Of a DNA stretch of 64,000 nucleotides, positions 14,521 through 45,408 are shown piece by piece. The stretch is from assembly GCA_963720465.1 (NCBI GenBank), contig OY970393.1, positions 1,152,001 through 1,216,000 of the forward strand, written 5' to 3'. A program made the translations under genes and the position numbers. Numbering within the stretch: the first letter of the stretch is position 1; each line of letters opens with the position of its first letter. A model generated the notes under the pieces. The model worked only from the letters and a program-made list of their open reading frames with translations. It ran no database searches and was not told the origin of the DNA. This DNA is from Methanobacteriota archaeon. Lineage in GTDB: Archaea > Halobacteriota > Bog-38 > Methanoflorentales > Methanoflorentaceae.

Positions 14521-14629
14521 GGATGGCTCTGGCGAAAAAAGCTGCGACGCCTACAAATACCACGGTAATCAGAGTGGCTGCAAAAAACGAGACGATGTTG
14601 CATGCGCGCATGGCTCGAAAAACGTTCTT

Positions 14630-18751: not shown

Positions 18752-18809
18752 CAATTCGACGCATAAAATTCACTTCTTTGTCAGAGTGCGCGGCATCGTT
18801 CAACATGAG

Positions 18810-22941: not shown

Positions 22942-23127
22942 TTAGCGAACAGCTTCGCCGTTGCGTTCGAGGAGCCACATAACCAAAACGAATAGCGCGA
23001 TCCCAACCCCCATGACGGGTCGCGTCAAAATATCAACGAAGCGCTCTTTTAGCCGATCAAGCCATCCGATCTCGGCTTCAAAAGGCGCATCAATGACGTG
23101 CCTCGAATCAATTTCGTATTTTTCCAT
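22942..23127 (-). CDS. Small 61-aa putative single-pass membrane protein
   Basis: ATG start, one hydrophobic segment VMGVGIALFVLVMWLL, TTTATATA box about 50 bp upstream (23175-23182). Confidence 0.5.
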   Translation of the reverse strand: MEKYEIDSRHVIDAPFEAEIGWLDRLKERFVDILTRPVMGVGIALFVLVMWLLERNGEAVR

Positions 23128-23851
23128 AGCACTGTCTTCCGGTCGAAAGCCCTTTTTAATCGTCTCATTGCGTATTATATAAATCTTGCGAAAATAACTA
23201 ATACAAGATCAACAAAGTTTGTCAATATTGTCTTTTGATGACAACTCGCCGACATATCTGATCTCTAACGGTAGTCGAGCAGATGACCGCAAATGCCCGG
23301 GCGTTGGTGGGGTGGCGTCCGCAACTCCATAAAACACGCTTTCATTTCGTCGCCTTTCAAAGCACGCCCCTCGTAATCCGAATCATAGCAACCGCGAGTG
23401 CCACGCGAAACGCTCTGTCGCAAAAAGTGCGGAGATCAGCCTCATTAGCAACGAAAGAAGCTCCACATTGCACGCTTTTTATCCGCTGTTAGAGCGGCAC
23501 TATGTGTCGACGTGAGCAGCAAAGAGATTACAGATAGCCTATTTCTTGTGGCCTGTGTAAGTCCGGGGTTGGATTGCGTTCACAGAGGTGTTTGTGCTGA
23601 CTGTGACAACCCCTCTGCAAGAACACGCTAAAAGTTGAAGAAAGAGGAAAGAACACCTTTTCGCGACCTGTTAATTCGCAGTTACTGTCACGGTAGCGAG
23701 CCTGGTTGCCATCAAGTGGGCATTGCCCCCCTTGAAACTCAAAGGTGGCAGCTTAAGGCCCTTTCCCGACGAGCAAATAGCAGCCGGTGCGTAGATCTTC
23801 GCAGTCGACTCGTGTTTCGTGCACAAAAACGCTTTGGCTAGCGTGTCTGCA

Positions 23852-25990
23852 CTATTGAACGGTGATCGTCACGACGGTGCTTGTCGATGTTAGATAGGTG
23901 CTGTCACCGGCGAAGGTGGCGTAGTAGGTGCGTGTGCCGGGGGAGCCGAAGCTCGTGGTGACGGAGATCTGGCCGGTGGCGTTGGTGGTGTTGGTCGTGT
24001 CGTTGTAGCGGACGTTGTTGAGGTAGTGGTAGATAGTGACGGACTCAGACGGGAGGGGGGTTCCACTGCTCGTCAAGGTGGCGTTGAAGGTGACAGGTTG
24101 GTTGACGGCGGGGGTGGTGGTGGACGGAGTGAGCGTGAGCGCGGTCGGCGTCTTGGTGACGTTGGTGACGTTGACGGTCACGACAATGCTTGTCGATGCT
24201 TGATAGGAGCTGTCACCGGCGAAGGTGGCGTAGTAGGTGCGTGTGCCGGGGGAGCCGAAGCTCGTGGTGACGGAGATCTGGCCGGTGGCGTTGGTGGTGT
24301 TGGTCGTGTCGTTGTAGCGGACGTTGTTGAGGTAGTGGTAGATAGTGACGGACTCAGACGGGAGGGGGGTTCCACTGCTCGTCAAGGTGGCGTTGAAGGT
24401 GACAGGTTGGTTGACGGCGGGGGTGGTGGTGGACGGAGTGAGCGTGAGCGCGGTCGGCGTCTTGGTGACGTTGGTGACGTTGACGGTCACGACAATGCTT
24501 GTCGATGCTTGATAGGAGCTGTCACCGGCGAAGGTGGCGTAGTAGGTGCGTTGTCCGGTGGAGCCAAAGCTTGTTGTGACGGTGATCTGACCGGTGGTGT
24601 TGGTGGTGTTGGTGGTGTCGTTGTAGCGGGTGGTGCTCGTGCCGATGTAGTGGTAGATCGTGACGTTCTCTCCTGAGAGTGGTGTTGTGCCGTTACTCAA
24701 GGTGGCATTGAAGGTGACCTGCTGATTGACGGCGGGGGTGGAGTTGGACGCGGTGAGGGTGAGGTTCGTCGCCGTCCTCTGCGTTGCAGTGGCTGTCGCC
24801 ACCATAAGCGTTAAGAGATGATACGAACTGTCAAGCGTGTTTACGAGGAAGGTGCCGTTTGGGTCAGTGAGTTGTGATGAGATCGCGTGCTCAAACGAAT
24901 CTTCAAATGATGTGCTATAAACTGGGAATGCTGATGACCACGAGTTATTATGCCTCACCGCGCAGTAAAGCGTGTTGTACGCCGTCCATGTGACTAGTAT
25001 ATCGCCATTGGTTGGGTTAAACGTCAGCATCGGCGACGAAACCGCTGGCTCTGCGCCGGTTGCGAGCACGACTTCGGGGGCCCACGTGCCATTCGCGTTG
25101 CGTTGTGCGTAGCGGATTTGTCCCGTCGTGGACTGATACACAAGGTGAACGATGCCGTCACCGAGACCGTCAGCAAAAATACGCCCGACGTAGGTGTTTG
25201 CATTGCTTGCGGTGTCTTCCACGGGTAGTGCGGTGATATTTCCTTCTGCGGTGAACGTGGAGCTGCCTGTGGTGCTTATATACCCTAGTGAGCGTATATT
25301 ATAGCCCCATTCATAATTCACCGTATATACCCCGCCATTGGAAAGCGGCGCTAAGATTTGATTACCTAGGAGATGGACAGGAAATCCCGACGCCGTAGCC
25401 CACGTCCCATCAGTCTTGGTATTCTTTGTAATCCAATCATTATAGCCTATCCACAGGTGCTGATTCGTGTCGATAACCATATTCGGGTCGCTTACCATAA
25501 CGGACGAGGCTATAGCAGTTTGCCAAGGCTGGTCCCAACTTATCGTTCCGTTTGACTGCAGAGAGCCACGCCGTACAATAAAGCCATAATTACCGTTGCT
25601 ACTGAGTGATGCATCAGATAGTCCAACCCACACTTTGTTATTGGTCGAGTCATACGAGACGGTAAAAACTGCGTCGTAGGCAACGTTATGGCCTAACGAC
25701 GTTGGGGACGACCACGTAGCGCCGCCGTCTGACGATGTGATATAACTGAGTGATCCGGTGCCCGCGTTCTTGGAATACGCGCCATAAAAAAACCACCACA
25801 ACCCCGCAGCGTAAAAGCTCTTGCGTTGATGGGGCAGTCTCGACACGGCCCCGTCGCCGGCGACGGTTTCGATGATAGAGACTTTAGATACGGCGACGTT
25901 AGAGGTCGCTGAAACCGTGGCTAGTTCAGCGAAGAGCGTCGTAATAAGCAGCACCGCCACAATAAAGGAGAACAATCTTGCGTGTGACAT
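23852..25990 (-). CDS. Secreted BNR/Asp-box (sialidase-like) beta-propeller + 3 Ig-like modules
   Basis: Signal peptide from MSHARLF; Asp-box SSDGGATWS; modules A-A-A with a 309-bp period (23900/24209/24518). Confidence 0.82.
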   Translation of the reverse strand: MSHARLFSFIVAVLLITTLFAELATVSATSNVAVSKVSIIETVAGDGAVSRLPHQRKSFYAAGLWWFFYGAYSKNAGTGSLSYITSSDGGATWSSPTSLGHNVAYDAVFTVSYDSTNNKVWVGLSDASLSSNGNYGFIVRRGSLQSNGTISWDQPWQTAIASSVMVSDPNMVIDTNQHLWIGYNDWITKNTKTDGTWATASGFPVHLLGNQILAPLSNGGVYTVNYEWGYNIRSLGYISTTGSSTFTAEGNITALPVEDTASNANTYVGRIFADGLGDGIVHLVYQSTTGQIRYAQRNANGTWAPEVVLATGAEPAVSSPMLTFNPTNGDILVTWTAYNTLYCAVRHNNSWSSAFPVYSTSFEDSFEHAISSQLTDPNGTFLVNTLDSSYHLLTLMVATATATQRTATNLTLTASNSTPAVNQQVTFNATLSNGTTPLSGENVTIYHYIGTSTTRYNDTTNTTNTTGQITVTTSFGSTGQRTYYATFAGDSSYQASTSIVVTVNVTNVTKTPTALTLTPSTTTPAVNQPVTFNATLTSSGTPLPSESVTIYHYLNNVRYNDTTNTTNATGQISVTTSFGSPGTRTYYATFAGDSSYQASTSIVVTVNVTNVTKTPTALTLTPSTTTPAVNQPVTFNATLTSSGTPLPSESVTIYHYLNNVRYNDTTNTTNATGQISVTTSFGSPGTRTYYATFAGDSTYLTSTSTVVTITVQ

Positions 25991-26158
25991 ACGCGTCTCG
26001 CATCGCAAACGACTTGACGCATGAAAACGTGTCAGAAGATATCATAAAGGCTGCGGTTTGAGGACATTCTAGTTTAAACGTAACGTATCTGTGCGATTCA
26101 ATGACGCTGCTATGCAAGGCGCTGTATCAGGACGCAGTTGTGAGGGTTCTAGTCTGTT

Positions 26159-27700
26159 TTACGTCACCTTCACCTTCACCGGAGCGCTCGTCGTGGACTG
26201 ATACGTCGCCGTCCCCGCGTATGACGCTCCGTAGGAGTAGATGCCATTCGTCGTCTCCTTCACCGAGAAAGTGTAGGCGCCCAGGGCTACGGCGGAGTTA
26301 TTTGTTTTCGTGGTGGCTACGGTGGTGTCGTACTTGCCACTGGTAGCGGAGTATTCAAGGAGGGTGAGGGTCGCGTTCCCGATACCCGTGTGATTGGTAG
26401 TGGCATTGTCAGTGAGCCTGCCCTGCACTTGAAAGGTCGTGTACACGCTCGCGGTCGCGGCGGCGGTGGCGTTAAGTGATGTGGGGTGCTTGACGCTCAC
26501 CATAAGCGCTAAGAGGTGATATGAACTATCAAGGGTGTTTACGAGGAAGGTGCCGCTTGGGTCAGTGAGTTGCGACGAGATCGCATGCTCAAACGAGTGC
26601 TCAAATGATGTGCTATAAACTGGGAATGCTGATGACCACGAGTTATTATGCCTCACCGCGCAGTAAAGCGTGTTGTACGCCGTCCATGTGACTAGTATAT
26701 CGCCATTGGTTGGGTTAAACGTCAGCATCGGCGACGAAACCGCTGGCTCTGCGCCGGTTGCGAGCACGACTTCGGGGGCCCACGTGCCATTCGCGTTGCG
26801 TTGTGCGTAGCGGATTTGTCCCGTCGTGGACTGATACACAAGGTGAACGATGCCGTCACCGAGACCGTCAGCAAAAATACGCCCGACGTAGGTGTTTGCA
26901 TTGCTTGCGGTGTCTTCCACGGGTAGTGCGGTGATATTTCCTTCTGCGGTGAACGTGGAGCTGCCTGTGGTGCTTATATACCCTAGTGAGCGTCCGTTCA
27001 CATCCCAAACGTAATTCACCGTATATACTCCACCGTCAGAAAGCGGCGCTAAAATCTGGTTGCCAGTCAGATGGACGGGAAATCCAGATGCCGTAGCCCA
27101 CGTGCCATTGGTGTTGGCGTTCTTTGTAATCGTGTTATTATAGCCTATCCAAAGGTGCTGATTTGTGTCAATGACCATATTGGGATCGCTCACAGCGGTT
27201 GTTGCCGCGATAGCAGTTTGCCAAGGCTGGTCCCAAGTTATCGTTCCGTTTGACTGCGGAGAGCCACATCGTACGATAAAACCGTAATTACCGTTGCTAC
27301 TGAGTGATGCATCAGATAGTCCAACCCACACTTTGTTATTGGTCGAGTCATACGAGACGGTAAAAACTGCGTCGTAGGCAACGTTATGGCCTAACGACGT
27401 TGGAGACGACCACGTAGCGCCGCCATCCGAGGATGTGATATAACTGAGTGATCCAGGAGCGTCGTCGGGGTATGCGCCATAAAAAAACCACCATAACCCC
27501 GCAGCGTAAAAGCTCTTGCGTTGATGGGGTACTCTCGAAACCGGCGCGTCGCCTACCCTGCCGGTTGTGATGATAGCGACGTGAGATACTGCGAAGTTAG
27601 AGGTCGCCGGAACCGTAGCTAGTTCAGCGAAGAGCGCGGCGATAAGCAGCACCGCCACAATTGCCGCCACAATTAAGGAAAACAATCTTTTGTGCGACAT
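26159..27700 (-). CDS. Secreted BNR/Asp-box beta-propeller paralog + 1 divergent Ig-like module
   Basis: Head nearly identical to 23852-25990; different C-terminal module. Confidence 0.82.
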   Translation of the reverse strand: MSHKRLFSLIVAAIVAVLLIAALFAELATVPATSNFAVSHVAIITTGRVGDAPVSRVPHQRKSFYAAGLWWFFYGAYPDDAPGSLSYITSSDGGATWSSPTSLGHNVAYDAVFTVSYDSTNNKVWVGLSDASLSSNGNYGFIVRCGSPQSNGTITWDQPWQTAIAATTAVSDPNMVIDTNQHLWIGYNNTITKNANTNGTWATASGFPVHLTGNQILAPLSDGGVYTVNYVWDVNGRSLGYISTTGSSTFTAEGNITALPVEDTASNANTYVGRIFADGLGDGIVHLVYQSTTGQIRYAQRNANGTWAPEVVLATGAEPAVSSPMLTFNPTNGDILVTWTAYNTLYCAVRHNNSWSSAFPVYSTSFEHSFEHAISSQLTDPSGTFLVNTLDSSYHLLALMVSVKHPTSLNATAAATASVYTTFQVQGRLTDNATTNHTGIGNATLTLLEYSATSGKYDTTVATTKTNNSAVALGAYTFSVKETTNGIYSYGASYAGTATYQSTTSAPVKVKVT

Positions 27701-28280: not shown

Positions 28281-28559
28281 ATGTCAGTGATACTCACGCT
28301 GACGGCGACTACGACCGGCGGCGCGATGACCTCTACGACGTCTGGGATTGCACTGCCAGTCATACTGGAAGGCGCCGCTATTGCCAGCATAGCGCTTCTC
28401 GCGTCACTTGTCGCCACTGAACTGCTATCGTCGCGCGAAGGATGGACCTTCCCTTTTCGCTATAGCAAGAAGGCAGCCGCAGCGGTGCTCTGGATCAATG
28501 TGACGCTCCTGATCATCTTTTGCGTCTCTGTGGCATTCAATGCGGCACAGCTAGTATAG
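28281..28559 (+). CDS. Small Thr-rich two-helix membrane protein
   Basis: TLTATTTGGAMTSTTS N-terminus, two hydrophobic helices, TTTATG about 25 bp upstream. Confidence 0.65.
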   Translation: MSVILTLTATTTGGAMTSTTSGIALPVILEGAAIASIALLASLVATELLSSREGWTFPFRYSKKAAAAVLWINVTLLIIFCVSVAFNAAQLV

Positions 28560-29859
28560 GCAAGAAGGGGAGCACCCCGAACAGGAGTATGTTGTTCACC
28601 GCGTGCATGGTGATGACAAACGGCAGGTTCTTTGTTTTGTAATATGCGACGCCAAAAAGGAGCCCTACCCCAGATGCGAAGAGCAGCTCGTAGTAGTTGG
28701 CGAAGCCTGATTGCATCGCACCAAAGATGATGCTTGTGATGAGTATGCCGACAACCGGCCCGCTGCGTTGCACAAGCTCCGGTTGCAACAGGGCTCGAAA
28801 GAGCAGCTCTTCTACGACCGCGACAACGAAGATCATCAGGACGCTGAGCTCGAGAAGCCCGACGAGCGAGTACGAGGGTATAAGGGCGGGATTTGCGAGA
28901 ATTTGGTACTCGATGAGCGCCAGCTCTACGCCTATGAGGGCGCCGAACGGAATCAGGTACGTCAACTGTAGCCCGCCTGTGAGACCAAGGTCGTGACGGC
29001 TCAGCTTTCGGTGAGCAACGACCCCAATGATCGGGAGGAGCATTACGCCGTAGATCGCCACCAACCAGTAGAGGGTCATCGTCGGGATGAACGCAAAGGA
29101 GAGGTTGACGACACGCAGCAACGACACCAAAGCAAGCACCTCTAAGAGCTCGATACGTTCTCCGTTCAGCACTCCTATCGCGACGATAATCACGACGAGG
29201 TTCAACGCCTGCACGGCGACTCCAGCGACGCGGTGCCCACTGAAGAGCAAGCCCTCGCCGGCGAGAATAAGGAATATGGCGAGGAGCTCATACCACGCCA
29301 AGTTGAAAACAAGCGATGTCCTAGCGGCTTGAGCGAGCGTTGTTCGGGTGGTGCCGAGGAGACGCGAAGAATGATACGTCACCGGCACTTCGGTGCTCTG
29401 TGCTTGGCTGTATTTGCTGCGACCCTCCGCGCATACGATGTACGTATGTCTGGCCGGTGCGCTATCGGTGACCGTAAACTTATAGCGCCCGAAGGCGTCG
29501 GTGATGGTGGTGGCCGTGCGCATCTTGTTTGTCGGATCATCCGTGTTGTAGAGCGCGACGGGCACTGCCACCATCTGCGCGCCGCCGCCGCTTGTGAGGC
29601 GTCCTGCGATCGCGATGTCGTACCCGATAAGCTGGTGCCGGGGGGTGGCGGTGGCGGTGATGGTCGTGAGGCTTTCTACGCGTCTTGAGCGTCTTTGCGC
29701 AACGTCTCTGCTGGAGGCACCACGCGTTCCAGTTCTCTCAGCGCTTACAGTCGTGTCCCATCTCTCGAAAGCAAGAGCAGATTCGCCTGAGGTCGAGAAG
29801 CCATCTTGTTGTCTCTGCTCTTCTTCCCCCGGCAATTCGGCGGCCCCCTTATATTTCAA
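28537..29859 (-). CDS. CPBP/CAAX (Abi) intramembrane protease homolog with N-terminal Ig-like domain
   Basis: VEELLFR, IFGAMQ, MHAVNN; multiple TM; start uncertain. Confidence 0.85.
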   Translation of the reverse strand: MKYKGAAELPGEEEQRQQDGFSTSGESALAFERWDTTVSAERTGTRGASSRDVAQRRSRRVESLTTITATATPRHQLIGYDIAIAGRLTSGGGAQMVAVPVALYNTDDPTNKMRTATTITDAFGRYKFTVTDSAPARHTYIVCAEGRSKYSQAQSTEVPVTYHSSRLLGTTRTTLAQAARTSLVFNLAWYELLAIFLILAGEGLLFSGHRVAGVAVQALNLVVIIVAIGVLNGERIELLEVLALVSLLRVVNLSFAFIPTMTLYWLVAIYGVMLLPIIGVVAHRKLSRHDLGLTGGLQLTYLIPFGALIGVELALIEYQILANPALIPSYSLVGLLELSVLMIFVVAVVEELLFRALLQPELVQRSGPVVGILITSIIFGAMQSGFANYYELLFASGVGLLFGVAYYKTKNLPFVITMHAVNNILLFGVLPFLPILAVPH

Positions 29860-33020: not shown

Positions 33021-33962
33021 ATGAAAGGCAAGAAGGTAATCGTCACTGGCGGTTTAGGCTTCATTGGTTCGCACTTAGTGGAAGCACTTGTGGAAAAAAA
33101 CGACGTCACGGTAATCGACGACCGGTCGACGGGGAAGTTGGAGAATATCGATCATTTGGGTGACGCACGCCCGGAAGTGATCGAAGGGGACGTCACTGAA
33201 CTCAATTTACCAGAAATCTTCGACGGCTATGAGTACGTTTTTCATGAGGCAGCGCTTCCCAGCGTTCAGCGCAGCATCGACGAACCGCTGATGTCAAACC
33301 AGTCCAACGCCACTGGGACCTTGAAGGTTTTGATCGCCGCCAAAGAATCGGGTGTAAAAAAGGTGGTCTATGCTTCGTCATCATCCGTGTACGGCGACAC
33401 CGTGGAGCTCCCGAAACGGGAAGACATGTGTCTTTCACCAAAATCCCCGTACGCGGTCACGAAGGCAACTGGTGAGCTCTACAGCACGGTGTTTCACCAA
33501 GTCTACGGCCTTCACACCATATCCTTGCGCTACTTCAACGTGTTCGGACCGCGGCAAGACCCATATTCCCAGTACGCTGCCGTAATTCCTAAATTTATAA
33601 CGGCGATTCTCAGCGGTAAACCGCCGACGGTTTTCGGGGATGGCACACAGAGTAGAGACTTCACTTTCGTGAAACACGTCGTTGAAGCAAATATTCGTGC
33701 GTGCGAATCCAGCGAGACCGGAACATTCAACATCGCCTGTGGCCGCAGCATTACCCTGAACGAGTTGATTGCCCTTCTCGCCAAGATCACTGGCAGCGAT
33801 GTTAAGCCAATCTATGCCGCGCGTCGGCCAGGAGACATAAGACACTCGCTCGCTGCTATCTCAAAGGCGCGAGTATTTGGTTACGCGCCGCATAGCAATT
33901 TCGAGGACGAGCTTCAAGAGACCGTAAGGTGGTTTGAGGGTGGAATTGTACGAGAAGATTAA
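33021..33962 (+). CDS. NAD-dependent UDP-HexNAc(A) 4-epimerase (WbpP/TviC-like SDR)
   Basis: TGGLGFIGSH, HEAALPSV, ASSSSVYG, PYAVTK, RYFNVFGPRQDP, GDGTQSRDF. Confidence 0.9.
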   Translation: MKGKKVIVTGGLGFIGSHLVEALVEKNDVTVIDDRSTGKLENIDHLGDARPEVIEGDVTELNLPEIFDGYEYVFHEAALPSVQRSIDEPLMSNQSNATGTLKVLIAAKESGVKKVVYASSSSVYGDTVELPKREDMCLSPKSPYAVTKATGELYSTVFHQVYGLHTISLRYFNVFGPRQDPYSQYAAVIPKFITAILSGKPPTVFGDGTQSRDFTFVKHVVEANIRACESSETGTFNIACGRSITLNELIALLAKITGSDVKPIYAARRPGDIRHSLAAISKARVFGYAPHSNFEDELQETVRWFEGGIVRED

Positions 33963-35277
33963 GAGCAAATCTGCGCGCATCGCTGTCATAGGGTTGGGCT
34001 ACGTCGGACTCCCGACAGCAGTCAACTTCGCTGAGAACGGGTTCAGCGTGATCGGAGTCAATAGGACACAGGAGAAAGTTGACATCATCAATGCGGGGGG
34101 GTGCTATCTTACCGACTTGAATATCGACGAACGCGTGCGAAGACTCGTCGGCCTTCGCAAGCTCACGGCCACTATCGACACAGCTGGCGCTACACGAGAA
34201 AGCGACGTGATCATCATCACCGTCCCAACGCCGATCACGTCGTTTAAGCGACCTGATCTATCATTTATCGTTTCCGCGGGTCAGGCCATTGCCCAAGGCC
34301 TGGGTCGCAACAAGCTCGTCGTCCTGGAATCGACTGTGTACCCGGGAGTGGTTGATGACGTGCTGAAGCCGTTGCTCGAAGAGTCAGGGTTGAAAGCCGG
34401 GACCGATTTTGGACTCGCCTACTGTCCGGAGCGATATAACCCGGGAGATGCCGATCACAATATTAGGGACGTGGTCCGAATCGTTGCGGGCATCACGCCG
34501 GAATGGGCTGAAGCAACAGCGCAGTTATACCTCAGCAACGCGAAGGACGTGGTCACGGTCAAGGATATCAAAACCGCTGAGGCGGCGAAAGTCATTGAAA
34601 ACATCCAGAGAGATCTCAATATCGCGCTCATGAATGAGCTCGCGCTGATCTTCGAACGCTTGGAGATTGACATCCAAGACGTGATCGAAGCCGCTTCGAC
34701 GAAGTGGAATTTCAACGTATATCATCCGGGGGCCGGAGTCGGCGGCCACTGCTTACCCGTCGACCCATACTACCTCGTTCATAAAGCCGAGGAGCTCGGG
34801 TACCACTCCCAGGTCATTACGGCCGGCAGGGCCGTCAATGATTACATGCCACTGCACGTTTTCCAGTTGACCGTCGACGCCCTCAACGAAAGAGCGCGAG
34901 CGGTCAACAAGTCGAAAATAGTCGTGCTTGGCCTGTCCTATAAGGAGAACGTGGGCGACTACCGCGAGAGCCCGACAGCTGTTGTGATTAACGAGCTTAC
35001 AAAGAGGGGCGCGATCGTCCATATCGTCGATCCATTCATCGAAGAGGACGTCCTGCGACGGTATGCGCAACCAGAAGCGACCGCATATGACGCTCTTTCC
35101 AACGCAGATGCTCTCGTCCTTATGACTGCCCACCGGGAGTTCTTGGGGCTTGACTTGGATCGCATCAAGGCAGAAATGCGCACCGCGATCATCGTCGACG
35201 GCCGGCGGTGCTTCGACCCAGAGATCGTCGAAAAACTCGGGATCGTGTATCGAGGGGTTGGGGCCAAGAACGGGTGA
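33934..35277 (+). CDS. UDP-N-acetylhexosamine 6-dehydrogenase (WecC/WbpA/WbpO family)
   Basis: GLGYVGLP, ESTVYPG, PERYNPG, KVIENIQRD, GVGGHCLPVDP, YKENVGDYRESP. Confidence 0.92.
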   Translation: MRVELYEKIKSKSARIAVIGLGYVGLPTAVNFAENGFSVIGVNRTQEKVDIINAGGCYLTDLNIDERVRRLVGLRKLTATIDTAGATRESDVIIITVPTPITSFKRPDLSFIVSAGQAIAQGLGRNKLVVLESTVYPGVVDDVLKPLLEESGLKAGTDFGLAYCPERYNPGDADHNIRDVVRIVAGITPEWAEATAQLYLSNAKDVVTVKDIKTAEAAKVIENIQRDLNIALMNELALIFERLEIDIQDVIEAASTKWNFNVYHPGAGVGGHCLPVDPYYLVHKAEELGYHSQVITAGRAVNDYMPLHVFQLTVDALNERARAVNKSKIVVLGLSYKENVGDYRESPTAVVINELTKRGAIVHIVDPFIEEDVLRRYAQPEATAYDALSNADALVLMTAHREFLGLDLDRIKAEMRTAIIVDGRRCFDPEIVEKLGIVYRGVGAKNG

Positions 35278-35643: not shown

Positions 35644-35656
35644 ACAAAAGTTAATA
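35644..35656 (+). promoter_or_regulatory. Candidate BRE/TATA (ACAAAAG-TTAATA) upstream of the tRNA
   Basis: Purine-rich BRE-like run followed by TTAATA about 65 bp before the tRNA 5' end. Confidence 0.4.
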
Positions 35657-35720
35657 GCCAGTCCGGTACACACAAGAGTTGGCTGACGATATTGTCTGCA
35701 CTCTGTTTGAACACTGGAAC

Positions 35721-35792
35721 GCCTCGGTAGTTTAGTAGGAAAAGCACTTGCTATCCAAGCAAGACTCGTTGGTTCGAATCCAACCCGGGGCA
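35721..35792 (+). tRNA. Non-canonical tRNA-Gly(TCC)
   Basis: GCCTCGG TA GTTT AGTAGGAA AAGC A CTTGC TATCCAA GCAAG ACTC GTTGG TTCGAAT CCAAC CCGGGGC A. All four stems pair; T8/A14, G15/C48, G18G19 and TTCGAAT are present; anticodon TCC at 35754-35756; A73; no CCA; position 33 is A. Confidence 0.88.
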
Positions 35793-35984
35793 TATTTGCA
35801 GCATTGAAACTTCCGATGCTGAGCGCCCCGTAAGCAGTTTCAGAAGTTCGAGGTTCCACGTTAATTCCTACAGCGGTCGCTTCCCAAGTCCGAGCTTCTC
35901 GCCTGCGCTGTTCAATTCACATCCGCGCCATAACAATGTTACCGAGGCGTATTTAATTTCGTCGAAAGCACTGCGATGTTTGAA

Positions 35985-36095
35985 CAAGCAAAAAAACTGT
36001 GCTTTGTGATGCGCGTCGGTTTTGCCAACATAGCAATGCGGTTCTCACACCGAATCAAATTTCGATTTGAATCTGGAAAGACGCGGAAAGGGCGC
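35985..36095 (-). pseudogene. C-terminal relic of the FemAB/GNAT-like family
   Basis: Translates APFPRLSRFKSKFDSV*EPHCYVGKTDAHHK versus AWPEHLSRFKSKFDPELKPYCYVEKTDEFYK in 39711-40727; stop at 36045-36047. Confidence 0.85.
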
Positions 36096-36698
36096 TTACG
36101 TGTTCGATGCCGGTTTGCACGCCTTAAACCTCCTACCGCGACCTCAGATTCGTCAAGAACCTCCTTTCCATCGCTCTCTCGTCGCCCGGGCTTTAGCGGC
36201 GTGCTTGCGTACCCCAGGGACGGCGTACCATCGGGAGCTAGCACTCCTGTCCCGCGCCTTGCGTTTGTAAAAAGAAGCGACCTGGCTGCCCTAGGCTCAG
36301 CGTCGCGCAGGTGTCCTCCTTAACTGACACGGGGCCGCCGCGGATTTTCATTGGCTCACGACGCTGAATGTGCAAAGTGCGGTGTTTTTGCGGCGGTCAT
36401 AGGTAAAGCGCTTTACTCGTGCACGATGCTGTAGATATGTCCGTGATCTTGACCCTGACGTCGACCGTGACAGGAAGCGGCGAATGACCTCGAGCACAAG
36501 TGATCGCGCAGAAAGATATACCAAGGCGCCCTCATGGCAAACGGGCCATTGTCGTCTTACTCGCGTTACACTATTTGATGTCTGACTGACTCTCGGAACA
36601 AGAACAGACTGGCAACCTTGTAGGCCCTCTGCGCGCCCCTCATTGTCGGGTTTTGCGCCTCCCTCGTGTTCACAGCTGCACATTATCAGCGAGGGCGC

Positions 36699-37796
36699 TC
36701 AATGCAGCAGGACTAGTGGCAAAAATGGGAGCACCCCAAACAGGAGTATGTCGTCCACCGCGTGCATCGTGACGACAAACGGCAAGTTTTTTGTCTTGTA
36801 AAATGCTACGCCAAAGACGACACCCGCCCCGGTCGTGAAGAGGAGTTCGTGGACGCTACCGTAGCTCGCGTGCATGGCGCCGAAGATCACGCTCGTGATA
36901 AGGATTCCCCCGACCGCACCGCTTCGCTCCATGAGCTGCGGCTGCAGCAGGACACGAAAGAGGAGCTCCTCAACGAGCGCCACAAAGAAGATCATAACGA
37001 TGCTTAACCCGATGAGCTCTGAGGCTGACGCATTCGGGATAAGTGGTGGATTGCGAAGAATAGCGTATTCAATAAGCCCGAGCCCAAGGCCAACGAGGGC
37101 GCCAAACGGAATGAGGTACGTCAATCGGAGACCTCCCGTGAGCCCAAGGTCGTGGCGGCTCAGCTTTCGGTGTGCAACGATCGCTATGATCGGTATAAAC
37201 ATCACGCCGTAAATCGCCAGCCAGTAGTACAAGGCTACCGTTCGGATGATCAAGACGAGAGGGAAGTACATCACCCAGACGATGATGAACCAGTAGACCG
37301 CTGGCAGGAGCGCAAATGAAACGATGATGACAAGAGACACCGATAGCAAACCGAGCACTTGGAGCAGCTGTACGCGCTTACCATGCGGCACCGCCACGAT
37401 GACGGCAACCGCGATGATGTTGAGCGTTTGCACGCCGACGCCGAGCGCAGTGTGGCCTGCAAAGAGCAAGCCCTCGCCGGCGAGGATAAGAAATATGGCG
37501 AGGAGCTCATACCACGCCAAGTCGAAAACAATTCGGGCCCTAGCTGCAGAAGCTAGCGCGGCTCGTATGGTGTCAGGGAGGCGCAAAAACTTTTCCTCAA
37601 CACTGTGACTTTTCGCGGTTAAAGATACTACGTACTTCGGATGTTTTGCTATTTCTGCGATATCTGGCGTTCTATTCGTTAAACTTGTCGTACTACTTAC
37701 AAGCTGGTTATTTCTGGGCTGTTTTTCCTTATGCCACAATCGCAGCAAGCCTGTCTCGGAAAAATAACATCGTAAACGGCTGCTCATTCCGAACAT
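36699..37796 (-). CDS. CPBP/CAAX (Abi) intramembrane protease, paralog of 28537-29859
   Basis: VEELLFR, IFGAMH, MHAVDD; start uncertain. Confidence 0.87.
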   Translation of the reverse strand: MFGMSSRLRCYFSETGLLRLWHKEKQPRNNQLVSSTTSLTNRTPDIAEIAKHPKYVVSLTAKSHSVEEKFLRLPDTIRAALASAARARIVFDLAWYELLAIFLILAGEGLLFAGHTALGVGVQTLNIIAVAVIVAVPHGKRVQLLQVLGLLSVSLVIIVSFALLPAVYWFIIVWVMYFPLVLIIRTVALYYWLAIYGVMFIPIIAIVAHRKLSRHDLGLTGGLRLTYLIPFGALVGLGLGLIEYAILRNPPLIPNASASELIGLSIVMIFFVALVEELLFRVLLQPQLMERSGAVGGILITSVIFGAMHASYGSVHELLFTTGAGVVFGVAFYKTKNLPFVVTMHAVDDILLFGVLPFLPLVLLH

Positions 37797-38521: not shown

Positions 38522-39586
38522 TCAGTTTCGAGTCTCCGATTCGCCGTTCGACTCACGTCCACGCCGCCGAGGCAAGATATGCTTCTCTCCCAGCGCTGAG
38601 AGCTTTGAGTAAACAGACAGGGCGATTTTGCCAAGCGCGTCGGTTTTGTCAACATCGCAATACGGTTTGAGCTCTGGATCAAATTTTGATTTGAACATGT
38701 TAAGACGCTGAGGACCATTCGCGCCAATCAAATCCAGCATCTTAAAGCCCTCTGTTTTTGCGTGCTGAATTATCTCCCATAAGAGAAACTCGTTCGTATT
38801 CAATTCTGGGCGTGCGTTAACGCCACCGAACCAAAAGCCATAGCGGTCCTCACGCAGCGCACAGCACGCGATTGCGCCAGCGATGCTTCCGTCAATGCTG
38901 ACGGTGTGGACCGTCACACGCTGAGGAAATGCATCCACAACCTCCTCTAGATACCTATCACTAAAGAGATTCTGTCTTTCCCCGCGTTCTTTTCTTCGTT
39001 CTCGCCACATGCGAAGCACCGAGCTGACATCGCTTGTGTGCTCTACGTGAGGTGATAGTGCGCTTACGTGTTTGATGCCCTGTTTGCATCTTTTGCCGAA
39101 ACCGCCCCAGATATCGTCGAGGGGTTTTTCCAGGTCTATCGCGTACGTAAACTTGAGCTGGACCGCGTAGTTCTTCCACTCAAACGTCCGTACGTCGATG
39201 AAACTTGGAACAGTTATAAACGACAGGAAGTTGGGAGAGATCTTGTCGATTTCCGTGCACAGCTCGTCAGTCACTTGCGCAAAGACCTTCTCCTTTTTAT
39301 GTGCCCTCAGCCCGGCCACGCTGGGATCAAAAACGGGTCCTAAGTAGGGAATTTGCGCGTCTGGCGGCGGGGAGTACATTAACGTCAGCCCCCGGCGTCG
39401 AGTAACAAAAAAAGGGAGTATGCATCTGAGTTTGTTGCCTGAATATATGGCATACGGCACAAGCCGGTATCCGGAATGTCTCTCAACAATATTCAAAAAA
39501 TCCCACGTATGGAATAACGTCCCCTGTGGGCTGTTTTCGACAAACTGGTCCCAGATCTTTTTATCGTCTAGCACTTCAGCGGCCAT
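38522..39586 (-). CDS. FemAB-like / GNAT (Acetyltransf_6-type) protein, copy 1
   Basis: WDQFVENSPQGTLFHTWDFL, YLGP, TYAIDL, NEFLLWEIIQHAKTEGFKMLDLIGAN, FKSKF; start MAAEVL. Confidence 0.85.
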   Translation of the reverse strand: MAAEVLDDKKIWDQFVENSPQGTLFHTWDFLNIVERHSGYRLVPYAIYSGNKLRCILPFFVTRRRGLTLMYSPPPDAQIPYLGPVFDPSVAGLRAHKKEKVFAQVTDELCTEIDKISPNFLSFITVPSFIDVRTFEWKNYAVQLKFTYAIDLEKPLDDIWGGFGKRCKQGIKHVSALSPHVEHTSDVSSVLRMWRERRKERGERQNLFSDRYLEEVVDAFPQRVTVHTVSIDGSIAGAIACCALREDRYGFWFGGVNARPELNTNEFLLWEIIQHAKTEGFKMLDLIGANGPQRLNMFKSKFDPELKPYCDVDKTDALGKIALSVYSKLSALGEKHILPRRRGRESNGESETRN

Positions 39587-39710
39587 TGCGCCACCCCACA
39601 CGGTTTTCGCCACAAATCATCCAGGCACATTTCTTGCTCTGCGTTAGTCCTCTGTCGTTTATCTCCCAAGTCTCAGGTTCTCACCAGGCGCTGTTCTACT
39701 CACGTCCAAT

Positions 39711-40727
39711 CTACCGAAGCAAGACTCGTTCTCTCGCAGTTTTGACAGCGTTGTAAACTGAACTCTCTATTTTGTAAAACTCGTCGGTTTTTTCAACATA
39801 GCAATACGGTTTGAGCTCTGGATCAAATTTTGATTTGAATCGGGAAAGATGCTCAGGCCACGCGCCAAAAAAATCCAGCGTCTTAAAGCCCTCTAATTTT
39901 GCGAGCTGAATGACCTCCCATAAAAGAAACTCATTCGTATTCAGGTCTTTGCGGGCGTTAACGTTGCCGATCCAATAGCCATACCGGTCGTCACGCAGCG
40001 CACAGCACGCGATTGCGCCAGCGATGCTTCCGTCAATGCTGATGGTGTGGACCGTCACACGCTGAGGAAATGCATCCACAACCTCCTCTAGATACCTATC
40101 ACTAAAGAGATTCTGTCTTTCCCCGCGTTCTTTTCTTCGTTCTCGCCACATGCGAAGCACCGAGCTGACATCGCTTGTGTGCTCTACGTGAGGTGATAGT
40201 GCGCTTACGTGTTTGATGCCTCGCTTGCATCTTCCAGCGAAACCGCCCCAGATATCGTCGAGGGGTTTTTCCAGGTCTATCGCGTACGTAAACTTGAGCT
40301 GGACCGCGTAGTTCTTCCACTCAAACGTCCGTACGTCGATGAAACTTGGAACAGTTATAAACGACAGGAAGTTGGGAGAGATCTTGTCGATTTCCGTGCA
40401 CAGCTCGTCAGTCACTTGCGCAAAGACCTTCTCCTTTTTATGTGCCCTCAGCCCGGCCACGCTGGGATCAAAAACGGGTCCTAAGTAGGGAATTTGCGCG
40501 TCTGGCGGCGGGGAGTACATTAACGTCAGCCCCCGGCGTCGAGTAACAAAAAAAGGGAGTATGCATCTGAGTTTGTTGCCTGAATATATGGCATACGGCA
40601 CAAGCCGGTATCCGGAATGTCTCTCAACAATATTCAAAAAATCCCACGTATGGAATAACGTCCCCTGTGGGCTGTTTTCGACAAACTGGTCCCAGATCTT
40701 TTTATCGTCTAGCACTTCAACAGCCAT
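39711..40727 (-). CDS. FemAB-like / GNAT protein, copy 2
   Basis: Near-identical to copy 1 over the first about 240 codons (offset 1141 bp). Confidence 0.85.
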   Translation of the reverse strand: MAVEVLDDKKIWDQFVENSPQGTLFHTWDFLNIVERHSGYRLVPYAIYSGNKLRCILPFFVTRRRGLTLMYSPPPDAQIPYLGPVFDPSVAGLRAHKKEKVFAQVTDELCTEIDKISPNFLSFITVPSFIDVRTFEWKNYAVQLKFTYAIDLEKPLDDIWGGFAGRCKRGIKHVSALSPHVEHTSDVSSVLRMWRERRKERGERQNLFSDRYLEEVVDAFPQRVTVHTISIDGSIAGAIACCALRDDRYGYWIGNVNARKDLNTNEFLLWEVIQLAKLEGFKTLDFFGAWPEHLSRFKSKFDPELKPYCYVEKTDEFYKIESSVYNAVKTARERVLLR

Positions 40728-40848
40728 GGTTACACGACCACGCGGCGGGTAATCGCTTTGCCGCACAATTGCTTGATCTGGGATCTGGCAAGCTAAGTTA
40801 TACCACTTGTTTCACGTTCCACCTTTTTAAGGTTTCTTGGGCTCTGCG

Positions 40849-42102
40849 TCAGCTCCTACGTCGGCCGCTTCCGCAATCGCAGGCGCGCGTGGAAACAGCT
40901 CGATTCACATACCGCGCCGAGGCAACATGCGCTTGACACTGAGTACCTGAGCTGGCTAGCTTTGAGCGTGCAAAGTTGGCAATCTTGGCCAGCATGTCAG
41001 TTCTCTCGACATAGCAAAATGGCTCTACGGCTGGATTAAATCGAAATTTGAACTCAGAAATACGCTGATTAGGGGCACCAGTCAAATCTAGCTTTTTGAA
41101 GCCCTCTGACTTTGCGCGCCGAATGATTTCCCATTCAAGATACTCAACCACACCCAGGTCTCTACGCGCACTAACGCCACCGATCCAACTACAATATCGC
41201 TCCTTTTGAATGGCACAGTACGTGCTTGCGGTAGCGAGCCTTCCGTCGATGCTGACGTTGTACACGGTCACGTCCTGGGGAAACGTAGCCACAAGCTCCT
41301 TGAGATAACTCTCGCTTAGCAGCGGCTCTTCTTTTGCACATTGGCGGAATCGTTCTCGCCAGATGGCAAGCAAGGAACTAACGTCGTTAGTTTGTTGTAC
41401 CTCAGGAGAGTAAGCGCTCACACGCTTAATCTTCTGCCTGCAGCCTCTACTAAATGATGCCCAGATCTCATCGACGGATTTTTCCAAGTTGATAGCGGAC
41501 GTGAACATCAAGTGCGCCGTGAAGTTCTTCCAAATAAAGGAGCGCACGTCAAGAAAATTTGGGACCGTCCTAAAATTCATGAAATTTGGAGCGATCTTGT
41601 CAACTTCGCTGCACAGCTCCCCAGTCACTTGCTCAAAGATCTTCTCCTTTTTATGTGCCCCCAGCCCGGCCACGCTGGGATCAAACGCGGGTCCTAAGTA
41701 GGGAATTTGTGCATCAGGTGGCGGGGAGCGCATTAGCGTCAGTCCCTGGCGTCGAGTAATAAAAAAAGGGAATACGCACATAAGTTCGTTACCTGAAAAT
41801 ATGGCATACGGCACAAGCTGGGACCCAGAATGTTTTTCAACGATCTTCAAAAAATCCCAGGTATGAAATAACGTTCCCTGTGGGCTGTTTTCGACAAACT
41901 GGTCCCAGATCTTTTTATTGTCTAGCACTTCAACAGCGATTTTTGCGTGTCCACATACTGATAGTATCAGTCCGTGCGCTAATCCGACCGGCAAGAGGAA
42001 GCAGTTCCCTAATACAATAGACGGGAGTACCACGCAAATAGCTAGAACAGCTACGCTGATGACAAGTTTTGTTAATGCGGACCCAGGTTTAACTAAGTCC
42101 AC
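40849..42102 (-). CDS. FemAB-like / GNAT protein, copy 3, with hydrophobic N-terminal extension
   Basis: Same motifs; the paralogous ATG is ATC at 41938-41940; GTG at 42102 is preceded by GGGGGG. Confidence 0.75.
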   Translation of the reverse strand: MDLVKPGSALTKLVISVAVLAICVVLPSIVLGNCFLLPVGLAHGLILSVCGHAKIAVEVLDNKKIWDQFVENSPQGTLFHTWDFLKIVEKHSGSQLVPYAIFSGNELMCVFPFFITRRQGLTLMRSPPPDAQIPYLGPAFDPSVAGLGAHKKEKIFEQVTGELCSEVDKIAPNFMNFRTVPNFLDVRSFIWKNFTAHLMFTSAINLEKSVDEIWASFSRGCRQKIKRVSAYSPEVQQTNDVSSLLAIWRERFRQCAKEEPLLSESYLKELVATFPQDVTVYNVSIDGRLATASTYCAIQKERYCSWIGGVSARRDLGVVEYLEWEIIRRAKSEGFKKLDLTGAPNQRISEFKFRFNPAVEPFCYVERTDMLAKIANFARSKLASSGTQCQAHVASARYVNRAVSTRACDCGSGRRRS

Positions 42103-42567: not shown

Positions 42568-43302
42568 TCAAAGTCTGTGCAGGCGGTTAGCCCCCATTAG
42601 TGCAAGTTCATAAATCTTCGAATAATACTTCGTATAGTCGTAGCGCTCGACAAGGTCTCCCCCAAAACCTTTCTTCCAAGCACTATACCCAACTTCTTGT
42701 AAGTCGCCATCTTTAACGTAATATCTTCCGAGGTCGAATTCTCGCAGTCCCTTGGCCTTCGCGTACTTTATCGTCTCCCACACGAGCAACTTGTTCGCGT
42801 TGCCAATCAAAGAGGCTCTGTCGCGATCAACGAGTCGCTTTGATGCTGCTAGCCTCCCCAATATAGTGTGGCCATCGGCAAAACAAGCGTGGCCGCACAG
42901 TATATCTCCATCGTACTCTGCAATGAACAGCGGACCGCTTCGTTTTAAAACACTCGTCTTCTCGAAATCAGGGTAAATCCCTTTTTTCTTTCGAAACGAA
43001 TCATTCAGTTCTTGGAATTCATCATAATCTTCATTAAGTTTGACTCTGACACCAGCCCGTTGAGCGCGCTTTATATCTCTTCGAGTTGAGCTCTTGCTCA
43101 TTTTTTTCCAGATTGTGTCAAGGTCTTGCGCTAAATCTATCACTAAGTTTGTCTTGGATCTCATCTGAAAACCCGCGAGGTCTACCTTATACTTAGTGTC
43201 GGTGAACTTGACGCAGTGATAGCCCTTTACGTCAAAGGGGTACGAGCTAAACCAGACCTTTTTGGTTTTGAACCAATATCGGCGACTTTCTAACTCCAAC
43301 AT
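42568..43302 (-). CDS. Short FemA/FemB/FemX-like GNAT protein
   Basis: VIDLAQDLDTIWKKMSKSSTRRDIKRAQRAGV, ANKLLVWETIKYAKAKGLREFDLG, WKKGFGG (FemABX FK.GFG-type motif). Confidence 0.85.
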   Translation of the reverse strand: MLELESRRYWFKTKKVWFSSYPFDVKGYHCVKFTDTKYKVDLAGFQMRSKTNLVIDLAQDLDTIWKKMSKSSTRRDIKRAQRAGVRVKLNEDYDEFQELNDSFRKKKGIYPDFEKTSVLKRSGPLFIAEYDGDILCGHACFADGHTILGRLAASKRLVDRDRASLIGNANKLLVWETIKYAKAKGLREFDLGRYYVKDGDLQEVGYSAWKKGFGGDLVERYDYTKYYSKIYELALMGANRLHRL

Positions 43303-43872: not shown

Positions 43873-45408
43873 TCAATATGCTCGCAGCTGCCTCAAATAT
43901 GATTGGATTACACTGGACGCGGCGGCGTAAGCTTCCAAGCGGAACGAGCGCACGAAAATGAAGTAGAACGCGGCGCCGAAACTTACTTGGAGAGTCAGAT
44001 GCGCGGCATACGACCAGCTGTTTGGCAGTAGGAGGCCGAACGCCCAAACAGCTAGCGCCATCGTTGCTGCGGCGTAAAACTGAGGTGCCAGCTTTCTCAG
44101 CATGGTGGCGAAGTTCAAATCAATGAGGCGAGCTGGAATTGACCAGTTGGGGTGCCACAGCAGGAAATTAGCCACAGTATAGGCGACAGCAACGCCCAAC
44201 GCCCCCCAGCGTAGTCCCACGACGAACGAAATGATGTAGATGGATCCGACCACGAGCCCCCACCTGAACATGATGTCGGTTCGGCCCTGAGACTGATAGA
44301 GCCAAGAACCGGTGATGCCTATAGACTGAATAGCGCTAAGAATGCTAAAAACTTGAATGATGGGAATCATCCCAGCCCACGTGTCACCAAATAATGTGAG
44401 CACTAATGGGCGTGAAAGAACTAGCAGTCCCAACGAGACAGGAAACGCCACGAGCGAGATAACGCTGATTGATCGCAAATAGAGAGCCCTCACCCGTTCT
44501 ATGTCGTTTTGGATCTTTGAGAGAGCGGGAAACATGACGAATGTAATGACGCTCGCTATCTGGGTCAGCGGCAGCACTAGAATGGCGTACGAACGGGAGT
44601 AAATCCCCAAGGGTGCTGATCCTAAGTAGCGGCCGATCAACAAGTTGTCGCAATTTAGCGTCCAGTAGTTGGAAATGGCAGCACCGAGGTAGTTAGTGCC
44701 GAACTTAGAAAGATCCTTAACTGCGCTCAGTTGCAGTGAGAAATCGGGTCGCCACGGCGCCAGGACCCACACCATGGCGACGTAGACGATCGCATTAAGA
44801 ACGTACAGGGCAACGATGCTCCACACCCCAAAACCGCTCAAAGCTAAGTATATCGCGGCGGCACCCGGAATCACAGAGCTGGTCAGCCCAGCGATTGCTA
44901 GCGTACGAAAATCCATCGCTTTTTGGACGAGAGATTGCGTTATCGTACCAAATGAGTTGATGATGAAGATCGGCGAAATTGCGATGGTGAGGGACTGGAG
45001 CTCCGGGACACCATAAAAGGATGCGATGTAGGGAGCCGCTGCAGCAAAAATCAGTGTTAGTAGCACTCCCACAGCAATGCTGACCCAAAATACCGCATTC
45101 TTGTGGCGCTGTTCCACGTCCACTTTTTGAATCAAGGCTGCACCAAACCCCATATCAGTAAATAACATTGCAAACCCCGTAAAAACGACGACCATCGCAG
45201 CTAGTCCGAAGTCTTGTGGAGACAAAAGATGCATCAGGATGACGGTTACCACTAGGGAAATTAGCTGACTGCCCGCTTGCGCGATACCGCTCCACGCCAG
45301 GCCAACGCGGATTTCGCTTTCTAAGTCCTGCATTTTGACCGGAATTGCATTACCTCGTTTTGCAAAGGTTTGGTCTGCCGTGGCGCTTCTAGCCGATTCG
45401 GTGACCAC
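43873..45408 (-). CDS. Polysaccharide flippase (WzxC-like)
   Basis: LLSPQDFGL, DMGFGAALIQ, DNLLIGRYLG..LGIYSRSY, VMFPALSKIQND; alternative start at 45333. Confidence 0.9.
   Translation of the reverse strand: MVTESARSATADQTFAKRGNAIPVKMQDLESEIRVGLAWSGIAQAGSQLISLVVTVILMHLLSPQDFGLAAMVVVFTGFAMLFTDMGFGAALIQKVDVEQRHKNAVFWVSIAVGVLLTLIFAAAAPYIASFYGVPELQSLTIAISPIFIINSFGTITQSLVQKAMDFRTLAIAGLTSSVIPGAAAIYLALSGFGVWSIVALYVLNAIVYVAMVWVLAPWRPDFSLQLSAVKDLSKFGTNYLGAAISNYWTLNCDNLLIGRYLGSAPLGIYSRSYAILVLPLTQIASVITFVMFPALSKIQNDIERVRALYLRSISVISLVAFPVSLGLLVLSRPLVLTLFGDTWAGMIPIIQVFSILSAIQSIGITGSWLYQSQGRTDIMFRWGLVVGSIYIISFVVGLRWGALGVAVAYTVANFLLWHPNWSIPARLIDLNFATMLRKLAPQFYAAATMALAVWAFGLLLPNSWSYAAHLTLQVSFGAAFYFIFVRSFRLEAYAAASSVIQSYLRQLRAY

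Follow-up and report, generated by a model that had tools for sequence, protein, structure and literature searches.

An intact tRNA-Gly(UCC) with A33 beside Fem-like transferase genes in an archaeal surface-glycan island: a tentative candidate for a non-proteinogenic glycine donor

The stretch analysed here, called the window below, comprises 64,000 nt of contig OY970393.1 (positions 1,152,001 to 1,216,000) and is part of a 2.31-Mb single-contig archaeal genome (2,313,764 nt). It carries a single tRNA gene, a tRNA-Gly(UCC) in which the near-universal U33 of the anticodon loop is replaced by A33 (the A33 tRNA), and this gene lies next to an array of genes for Fem-like tandem-GNAT transferases. 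Our tentative preference is to regard the A33 tRNA as a functional, non-proteinogenic (NP) donor of glycine for these adjacent transferases, kept out of translation, while a neutral relic of horizontal transfer comes close to it in probability. The role as donor is favoured because the gene is intact and redundant, has kept the nucleotides that glycyl-tRNA synthetase (GlyRS) is expected to recognise and stands beside likely consumers of aminoacyl-tRNA, and also because its departures from the native Gly tRNAs fall at position 33, which is read by the ribosome, and at pairs 50-64 and 51-63, which are read by the elongation factor.

The mechanism that we propose would start with transcription of the A33 tRNA and its charging by the host GlyRS, via the retained G1-C72, C2-G71, C35, C36 and A73. 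The charged tRNA would then be a poor substrate for the elongation factor aEF1A and for the ribosomal A site: A33 would take away the canonical U-turn nucleotide, and U50-A64 and U51-A63 would stand in for the native C-G and G-C pairs. Its glycine would mainly be consumed by the adjacent Fem-like transferases, which are presumed to use Gly-tRNA, and this one in particular. These enzymes could place glycyl residues on an amine, either of a surface glycan or of a lipid- or nucleotide-linked precursor, the glycan or precursor being made and flipped by products of the surrounding gene cluster.

The A33 tRNA is complete. It is 72 nt long, does not have an encoded CCA and reads GCCUCGG/UA/GUUU-AGUAGGAA-AAGC/A/CUUGC-UAUCCAA-GCAAG/ACUC/GUUGG-UUCGAAU-CCAAC/CCGGGGC/A. 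The acceptor stem GCCUCGG/CCGGGGC has 7 bp, among them U4.G69, and the D stem GUUU/AAGC has 4 bp, among them U11.G24. The anticodon stem CUUGC/GCAAG is paired 5/5 and encloses the loop U32-A33-U34-C35-C36-A37-A38; the variable region is ACUC, and the T arm GUUGG-UUCGAAU-CCAAC, with a 5/5 stem, contains G49-C65, U50-A64 and U51-A63. All tertiary nucleotides are in place (U8, A14, G15-C48, G18G19, T54-A58 and C56), together with the discriminator A73. With 21/21 stem pairs intact, no damage is seen in the tRNA apart from A33. ARAGORN calls a tRNA-Gly(tcc) with exactly the boundaries listed in Table 1, as the sole tRNA within the window, and the Rfam family RF00005 is matched with 56.8 bits (gathering score 29, E=1.3e-9), no other Rfam match being found in the window. 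The minimum free energy fold is the cloverleaf (-25.2 kcal/mol, z=-2.84), and an equally good folding is reached in 2/200 shuffles. An initial annotation of this DNA had described intact stems and tertiary nucleotides, the loop UA-UCC-AA, the pairs U50-A64 and U51-A63 and a C-G pair at 3-70, and all these features are confirmed. The assembly error that it had considered as an alternative origin of A33 does not hold. Contigs from 4/4 public runs span the tRNA at a depth of 12-29 with 0 differences, A33 being identical in all of them, and an error of one assembly is excluded because these contigs were assembled separately; the four runs come from one freshwater-sediment study, possibly the source of the genome, and represent contigs that mask rare variants rather than independent populations.

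The host is a methane-cycling archaeon whose genome bears mcrA, and the sources of homologous proteins label these as 'Halobacteriota archaeon'. ARAGORN, with introns allowed, predicts native Gly genes with the anticodons GCC, UCC (with a 12-nt intron) and CCC, all with U33 and the T stem CCGGG/CCCGG; an extra intron-mode 'Gly(ccc)' call at 523647 is dubious. Alignment to these genes, as suggested in the initial annotation, sets three canonical U33 genes beside the A33 tRNA, which raises the number of Gly tRNAs in the genome to four and, as a second UCC, is redundant. It is also the only non-U33 tRNA among those of the host that ARAGORN parses confidently, two further non-U33 rows being intron mis-parses. 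Over the 47 host predictions, pair 51-63 is G-C in 34, C-G in 10, A-U in 1 (tRNA-Asn) and U-A in 2, and these last two are the initiator tRNA-Met and the A33 tRNA. In vertebrate initiators, pairs 50-64 and 51-63 act as elongation anti-determinants. U51-A63 is common to the host initiator and the A33 tRNA, but the latter has neither A1-U72, nor the three G-C pairs at the foot of the anticodon stem, nor the CAU anticodon, and to judge from these features it is not an initiator. Nor is it a recent copy of any native tRNA, as no close native paralog is found: the best global match covers 55/72 positions, and the native Gly-UCC 50/72.

All four host Gly tRNAs have in common G1, C2, G71, C72, A73, G10, U11, U13 and C25, as well as G30-C40, C31-G39, C35, C36, A37 and A38. 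The identity set described for archaeal GlyRS consists of C35, C36, G1-C72 and C2-G71, with A73 typical but not required in A. pernix (PMC9976931), and all these nucleotides are present in the A33 tRNA. Pair 3-70 is G-C, A-U and G-C in the three native Gly tRNAs and is thus not fixed, while it is C-G in the A33 tRNA. An extra UCC decoder has no codon-usage reason in this genome: GGA makes up 21% of the Gly codons in island genes versus 23.5% genome-wide, and surface proteins favour GGC.

The neighbouring Fem-like genes are the other element that carries the proposed role. The 2.31-Mb genome has four matches to PF13480 (Acetyltransf_6/FemAB-like), and 4/4 lie within 2.7-7.5 kb of the tRNA; these genes, labelled 'FemA' to 'FemD' in Table 1, are likely the only ones of the host to consume aminoacyl-tRNA outside the ribosome. 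PF13480 is passed by 4/4 of them. Against Pfam FemAB (PF02388), FemD passes with 25.6 bits versus a cut-off of 24, FemC reaches 17.1 bits, and FemA and FemB give no match; the cut-off of TIGR03019 is far out of reach for 4/4. FemB, the one copy modelled, yields an AlphaFold model with a mean predicted local distance difference test (pLDDT) score of 90.8, from a 63-row alignment. When this model is compared to the PDB with Foldseek, the best 12 matches are all aminoacyl-tRNA-dependent enzymes, with template modelling (TM) scores of 0.53-0.76. Matches are obtained with FemX of W. viridescens (Weissella; TM 0.66-0.71), FemA, FmhB, Sba18/Sbb17 and the aminoacyl-phosphatidylglycerol synthase (aaPGS) domain of MprF, whereas the acetyl-CoA tandem GNATs score 0.5 or less. 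Among PDB sequences, a profile search matches FmhB (E=0.009) and, beyond it, the aminoacyl-tRNA-dependent peptide synthases Sba18/Sbb17 (E=0.68, 1.8) and nothing else, and a search of the same sequences with FemB alone gives no match. FemB thus has the tandem-GNAT fold in common with FemX/FmhB/FemA and with the Orf11/Sba18-type enzymes; the Fem-like neighbours differ from the FemX/FmhB/FemA type by a sequence identity of 11-14%, by the lack of a coiled-coil insert and by their location in an archaeal glycan island rather than a peptidoglycan pathway. The family alignment contains an F-K-x-K-F motif in which K311 and K313 are nearly invariant and F314 is invariant. This motif resembles what we take to be the sequence around the catalytic Lys305 of FemX. 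Lys305 is given as the catalytic residue of FemX in PMC12945691, and Fem-type Orf11 is described there as glycylating an amino sugar from Gly-tRNA. On the basis of the fold and of the weak profile matches, the Fem-like neighbours are probably aminoacyl-tRNA-dependent transferases.

Within the array, FemA and FemB are 86-88% identical at the protein level, with 300-nt DNA blocks that are 92-98% identical, which points to a recent tandem duplication or to gene conversion, and FemC is 57-62% identical. Fem-like arrays are present in 7/23 other genomes of the class (E<=1e-5), the class being represented by 24 species genomes in the searched set. The same PF13480 subfamily is found in 106/401 sampled genomes of the phylum (E<=1e-20), often as tandem arrays of 2-5 genes, and some families have it in all or nearly all sampled genomes (15/15 in f22, 13/15 in f9). 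The closest homologs are metagenome proteins (P0002-P0009), with 74-78% identity.

To our knowledge, staphylococcal cell-wall synthesis is the only case in which it is understood how one aminoacyl-tRNA pool is divided among the ribosome and its competitors. In that system, NP1-NP3 are described as the donors for FmhB/FemA/FemB, and the NP tRNA-Gly(UCC) as a tRNA that binds poorly to EF-Tu and the ribosome and is preferred by FmhB (PMC7826273). Glycine itself contributes little to EF-Tu binding, which makes the T stem decisive, and the T-stem rules derive from bacterial EF-Tu (PMC7826273); we infer that they carry over to archaeal aEF1A. As far as that source describes the staphylococcal tRNAs, the likeness lies in a UCC isoacceptor that is additional to the proteogenic Gly tRNAs, in the presence of several Fem-type paralogs in the genome, and in body features expected to weaken use by the elongation factor and the ribosome, which in the archaeal tRNA would be A33 and U50-A64/U51-A63. 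The differences are several. A33 is not reported for the staphylococcal NP tRNAs, and it is present in the archaeal tRNA; the staphylococcal NP lineage is described as kept across the genus, whereas the A33 tRNA is found in one genome only; and the staphylococcal host is a bacterium with peptidoglycan, whereas the host of the A33 tRNA is an archaeon without it. Its archaeal type (A73) and archaeal host (mcrA, intron-bearing tRNAs) indicate that the A33 tRNA is not in the staphylococcal NP lineage. The tRNAProX of Streptomyces/Kitasatospora, as it is described, has only A33 in common with the archaeal tRNA: it decodes, and it has A34, A15-A48, an anticodon that contradicts its Pro identity and a co-encoded synthetase paralog (PMC11415595). 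By contrast, the A33 tRNA has U34 and a normal G15-C48, its identity and its anticodon are both Gly, and no aminoacyl-tRNA synthetase domain is found among the window open reading frames (ORFs) scanned.

A wider claim, which we regard as possible but somewhat doubtful, is that the A33 tRNA is the first archaeal tRNA dedicated to a non-ribosomal use. It would combine A33 with an initiator-like T stem and feed a Fem array for glycyl or oligo-glycyl substituents of a glycan, by convergence with the staphylococcal tRNA-Gly/FemXAB partition. A literature search found no description of archaeal Fem-like transferases or of an archaeal non-proteinogenic tRNA, an absence from the search and not a proof. 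If the A33 tRNA is indeed a glycine donor, a spare isoacceptor that is unattractive to the translation machinery would be a general solution, which can be reached by another nucleotide change, here A33; the Fem-like arrays seen in roughly one in four of the genomes sampled from the phylum would be glycan-modifying enzymes that depend on aminoacyl-tRNA; and a first functional handle would be gained on the Fem-like genes so frequent in surface-glycan islands of Halobacteriota. If it is instead a silent relic, it would be a minor curiosity of a hypervariable island.

A number of results weigh against a role as donor. The A33 tRNA is a singleton, known from one genome: BLASTN finds it in 0/40 relatives, 17 of them of the same genus (E<=1e-3), and in 0/23 other genomes of the class (E<=0.01), many of the genomes searched being 59-91% complete. 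No tRNA-Gly is present in the 17 stretches that surround Fem matches of 8 relatives and contain one tRNA-Ser only, nor in 40 stretches of about 20 kb around Fem-like genes in 38 other genomes of the phylum, which hold one confident tRNA (Ala) and two dubious intron-mode calls. The count is thus 0/57 stretches around other Fem-like genes, and the syntenic GT4...CPBP...Fem stretch of a same-genus genome (G003) is also without a tRNA. Although a random position would show the same co-location with the Fem-like genes with a chance of (4781+2x2729+72)/2,313,764 = 0.45%, this co-location is weaker evidence than the figure suggests, because hypervariable islands are preferred landing sites of foreign DNA and regularly house Fem arrays. 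DNA homology with four full-length loci of the same genus ends at the stop codon of the dehydrogenase gene that precedes the tRNA, so the tRNA-bearing stretch is species-specific, and such a junction also fits an accidental acquisition in a hypervariable glycan island. No strong TATA box is seen at -25 to -40 of the A33 tRNA gene, and only a TTT run follows it, with no T-run terminator. The tRNA lacks the G3-C70 pair reported as a determinant for Aeropyrum pernix GlyRS, and its C3-G70 may lower its charging (PMC9976931). It has the T loop UUCGAAU and G18G19, whereas the staphylococcal NP tRNAs are described with a UGC/UGU T loop and U19 (PMC7826273). Finally, a nucleotide other than U33 is by itself no proof of exclusion from translation, because mistranslating (decoding) tRNAs that naturally have A33 or G33 are reported (e.g. 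A33 in tRNAProX; PMC11415595) and because C33 occurs in an otherwise canonical archaeal tRNA-Gly(CCC) (loop C-C-CCC-AA, T stem CCGGG) in five genomes of the phylum, from four other families (Table 1).

Many of these points also speak for a neutral relic, that is, a foreign tRNA-Gly of viral or other archaeal origin, silent or useless, with A33 either disabling or tolerated and the nearness of the Fem-like genes incidental. We consider this a plausible rival. It would explain why no ortholog is found in 23/23 other genomes of the class, why the tRNA is not copied from any native one, why it stands exactly at a synteny break and beside a decayed Fem fragment, with a weak promoter and no terminator, and why the 57 other Fem stretches hold no tRNA-Gly; foreign DNA, moreover, tends to gather in islands of glycan and surface-protein genes such as the window. 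On the other side, nothing but A33 is broken in the tRNA, its nearest genes belong to the one enzyme family of the host expected to use aminoacyl-tRNA off the ribosome, and neither an integrase among the large ORFs scanned nor a repeat of the tRNA elsewhere in the genome is found. A source for it was not found either: in the species genomes and viral contigs scanned, no donor-like tRNA combines such a T arm and anticodon loop, even with position 33 left free. It is unlikely that the A33 tRNA is an ordinary, if unusual, elongator, in which A33 would be tolerated and which would add GGA/GGG decoding or alter decoding through its efficiency or frame maintenance. The natural A33 and G33 tRNAs of the mistranslating type (PMC11415595), the C33 tRNA-Gly(CCC) of five genomes and the canonical T loop, D loop and anticodon would agree with it; however, a canonical tRNA-Gly(UCC) is already there, GGA/GGG codons are not enriched in island genes, the 51-63 pair is that of the host initiator and unlike that of any host elongator, and the gene is missing from all relatives searched while true Gly decoders are nearly invariant. 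Very improbable, in our view, is an attachment site or the remnant of an integrated element, either as an att-site tRNA gene or as a tRNA-like end of a mobile element. The synteny break and the neighbouring gene fragment speak for it, but the gene is full-length and not a 3' fragment, no exact word of the tRNA longer than 14 nt recurs in the genome that could be a direct repeat of its 3' part, no integrase or transposase domain is detected by Pfam among the 44 larger window ORFs, and the viral, phage and plasmid collections give no match.

The interpretations of the initial annotation fare unevenly in the light of these results. That the glycine charging identity is kept agrees with G1-C72, C2-G71, C35, C36 and A73, and not with C3-G70, which departs from the G3-C70 described in PMC9976931. 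That the tRNA carries anti-translation features gains from the combination of A33 with a 51-63 pair otherwise restricted to the initiator in this host, and the Fem-like context strengthens a non-translational reading; the features themselves are deduced from T-stem rules of bacterial EF-Tu (PMC7826273), and natural A33 is described in mistranslating tRNAs (PMC11415595). Selection, which it had deduced from pairs changed on both strands, cannot be shown, as there is neither a native parent copy nor an ortholog, and hence no covariation series; descent from a foreign tRNA lineage could by itself account for the pair differences. The case named there as refuting, U33 in orthologs of close relatives, does not arise, as the relatives searched have no ortholog. 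The remnant of an att site, offered there as an alternative, is very improbable, with no integrase domain among the window ORFs scanned and no repeat.

The coordinates of the tRNA and its neighbours are collected in Table 1. The putative TATA-like box has a position weight matrix (PWM) score equalled or exceeded by 9.4% of random genomic 70-mers; most stand-alone tRNA genes native to the host carry a TTTATATA-like box between -28 and -40, with PWM scores of 6-12. The epimerase and dehydrogenase genes belong natively to the genus: four genomes encode the pair at 74-81% protein identity, and a fragment in a fifth genome reaches 89%. The Fem fragment is convergent with the tRNA, 132 nt from its 3' end, and corresponds by tblastn to FemB residues 307-351 (42% identity, E=1e-6). 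It is 52% identical over 60 aa to metagenomic members of the family versus 42-45% to the resident paralogs, and is too short for its origin to be placed. The search for exact words that recur elsewhere in the genome leaves, for the tRNA, 4 chance-level 13-mer matches.

Table 1. The A33 tRNA, features around it in the window (window coordinates) and C33 tRNA loci of other genomes
Feature	Coordinates	Strand	Remarks
NAD-dependent sugar epimerase/dehydratase and UDP-sugar dehydrogenase genes	33021..35277	+ (strand of the tRNA)	end 443 nt before the tRNA
Putative weak TATA-like TTAATAGC	35651..35658	+	-70 from the tRNA; PWM score 5.89
tRNA-Gly(UCC) with A33, U50-A64, U51-A63	35721..35792	+	ARAGORN, Rfam, fold, comparison with native tRNAs
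Decayed C-terminal piece, with an internal deletion, of a fifth Fem-like gene	35925..36117	-	repeat families D3, D4; tblastn
CPBP/Rce1-like intramembrane protease gene	36699..37796	-	paralog of 28537-29859
Fem-like tandem-GNAT gene 'FemA'	38522..39613	-	363 aa
Fem-like gene 'FemB'	39711..40766	-	351 aa; copy used for the structure model
Fem-like gene 'FemC'	40849..42102	-	417 aa
Short Fem-like gene 'FemD'	42568..43302	-	244 aa; second GNAT half only
Wzx-type polysaccharide flippase gene	43873..45408	-	directly upstream of the Fem array
C33 tRNA-Gly(CCC) loci			L030 (G179), L041 (G241), L045 (G206), L047 (G381), L049 (G226)

The whole window is an island of glycan and surface-protein genes, with three Wzx-type flippases, at least seven glycosyltransferases, two UDP-sugar dehydrogenases and five large secreted Ig-domain (Big_3_5) proteins. 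Six secreted proteins (11467-27700 and 55945-59127) have a last Ig-like domain that is nearly the same in all of them (...YYATFAGDSSY...VTIIVH) and is rich in N-x-T/S sequons; 5/6 of them match Pfam Big_3_5, and one Ig-domain protein (19531-22629) also has papain-like protease and lectin-like domains. A sortase-like anchoring of the Ig-domain proteins by the CPBP protease, the Fem-like enzymes and glycine was considered and rejected: 7/7 large secreted proteins checked end in the last Ig-like domain, and neither a C-terminal sorting signal nor a membrane helix is found in these 7 proteins. The island holds two paralogs of the CPBP/Rce1-like protease (28537-29859 and the one close to the tRNA), and a CPBP gene also adjoins the Fem-like arrays of two genomes of the same genus (G007 and G003), an arrangement suggestive of a functional pairing. 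In G003, the order is GT4 - esterase - unknown - CPBP - DegT aminotransferase - small ORF - Fem, without a tRNA; the DegT/DnrJ/EryC1 sugar aminotransferase between the CPBP and Fem-like genes (L019 6486-7631, G003:C28) hints that the acceptor of the Fem-like enzymes is an amino sugar.

The wider searches for relatives of the A33 tRNA returned several candidates. An exact pattern with position 33 free (U32-N33-UCC-AA, spacing, NUUGG-UUCGAAU-CCAA) has 2 matches in a genome collection described as covering 185,579 species, and neither match is a tRNA. A looser pattern matches 31 metagenome contigs (27 with U33, 2 with C33 and 2 with A33), without any close homolog among them (best 51/72), and of the four non-U33 matches ARAGORN accepts one C33 case as a tRNA. 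Searches of viral, phage and plasmid collections, among them BLAST of the phage and plasmid ones, brought nothing relevant to the A33 tRNA, and a viral contig (L086) that has a 21-nt T-arm/acceptor word in common with it is no homolog. The canonical Gly genes with the anticodons GCC and CCC have 3' halves that scarcely change by a letter across 22/23 other genomes of the class, and a diverged native ortholog of the A33 tRNA would be surprising given this near-invariance.

Some of these candidates deserve a description of their own. A 'tRNA-Gly(ACC)' predicted by ARAGORN in G001, a genome of the same genus, with A33 and A34 (L028 1469-1541; G001:C68:13297-13369) was rejected as an ortholog: it has the mismatches G2.G71 and A50.C64 and no Rfam match at E<=0.1, and G001 has no Fem match. 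It lies after genes for thioredoxin, flavodoxin, cupredoxin and Ig-like-domain proteins. A pattern match in G014 is coding sequence. The two A33 metagenome matches (L068, L078) were also set aside, as ARAGORN calls no tRNA in them and the contigs are ORF-poor; they come from one metagenome and are two related tRNA-like sequences with the anticodon arm GC-UAUCCAA-GC and imperfect stems, which may be tRNA-derived repeats. An extra tRNA-Gly(UCC) of G019 is of bacterial type (U73) and probably a contamination; it sits in a Leu-Pro-Gly tRNA cluster (L137 512-803, G019:C144) on a 5-kb contig of an archaeal metagenome-assembled genome. At L037 1489-1562 (G193:C8, ~891.4 kb), ARAGORN predicts a tRNA with an 8-nt anticodon loop ('cccc') that adjoins a tRNA-Ile(UAU) and could be a quadruplet-type or a mis-parsed Gly tRNA. 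At L044 1669-1718 (G286), a sequence with a tRNA-like module gives a sub-threshold match to the Rfam family YrlA (Y RNA-like), with 33 bits versus a gathering score of 69.

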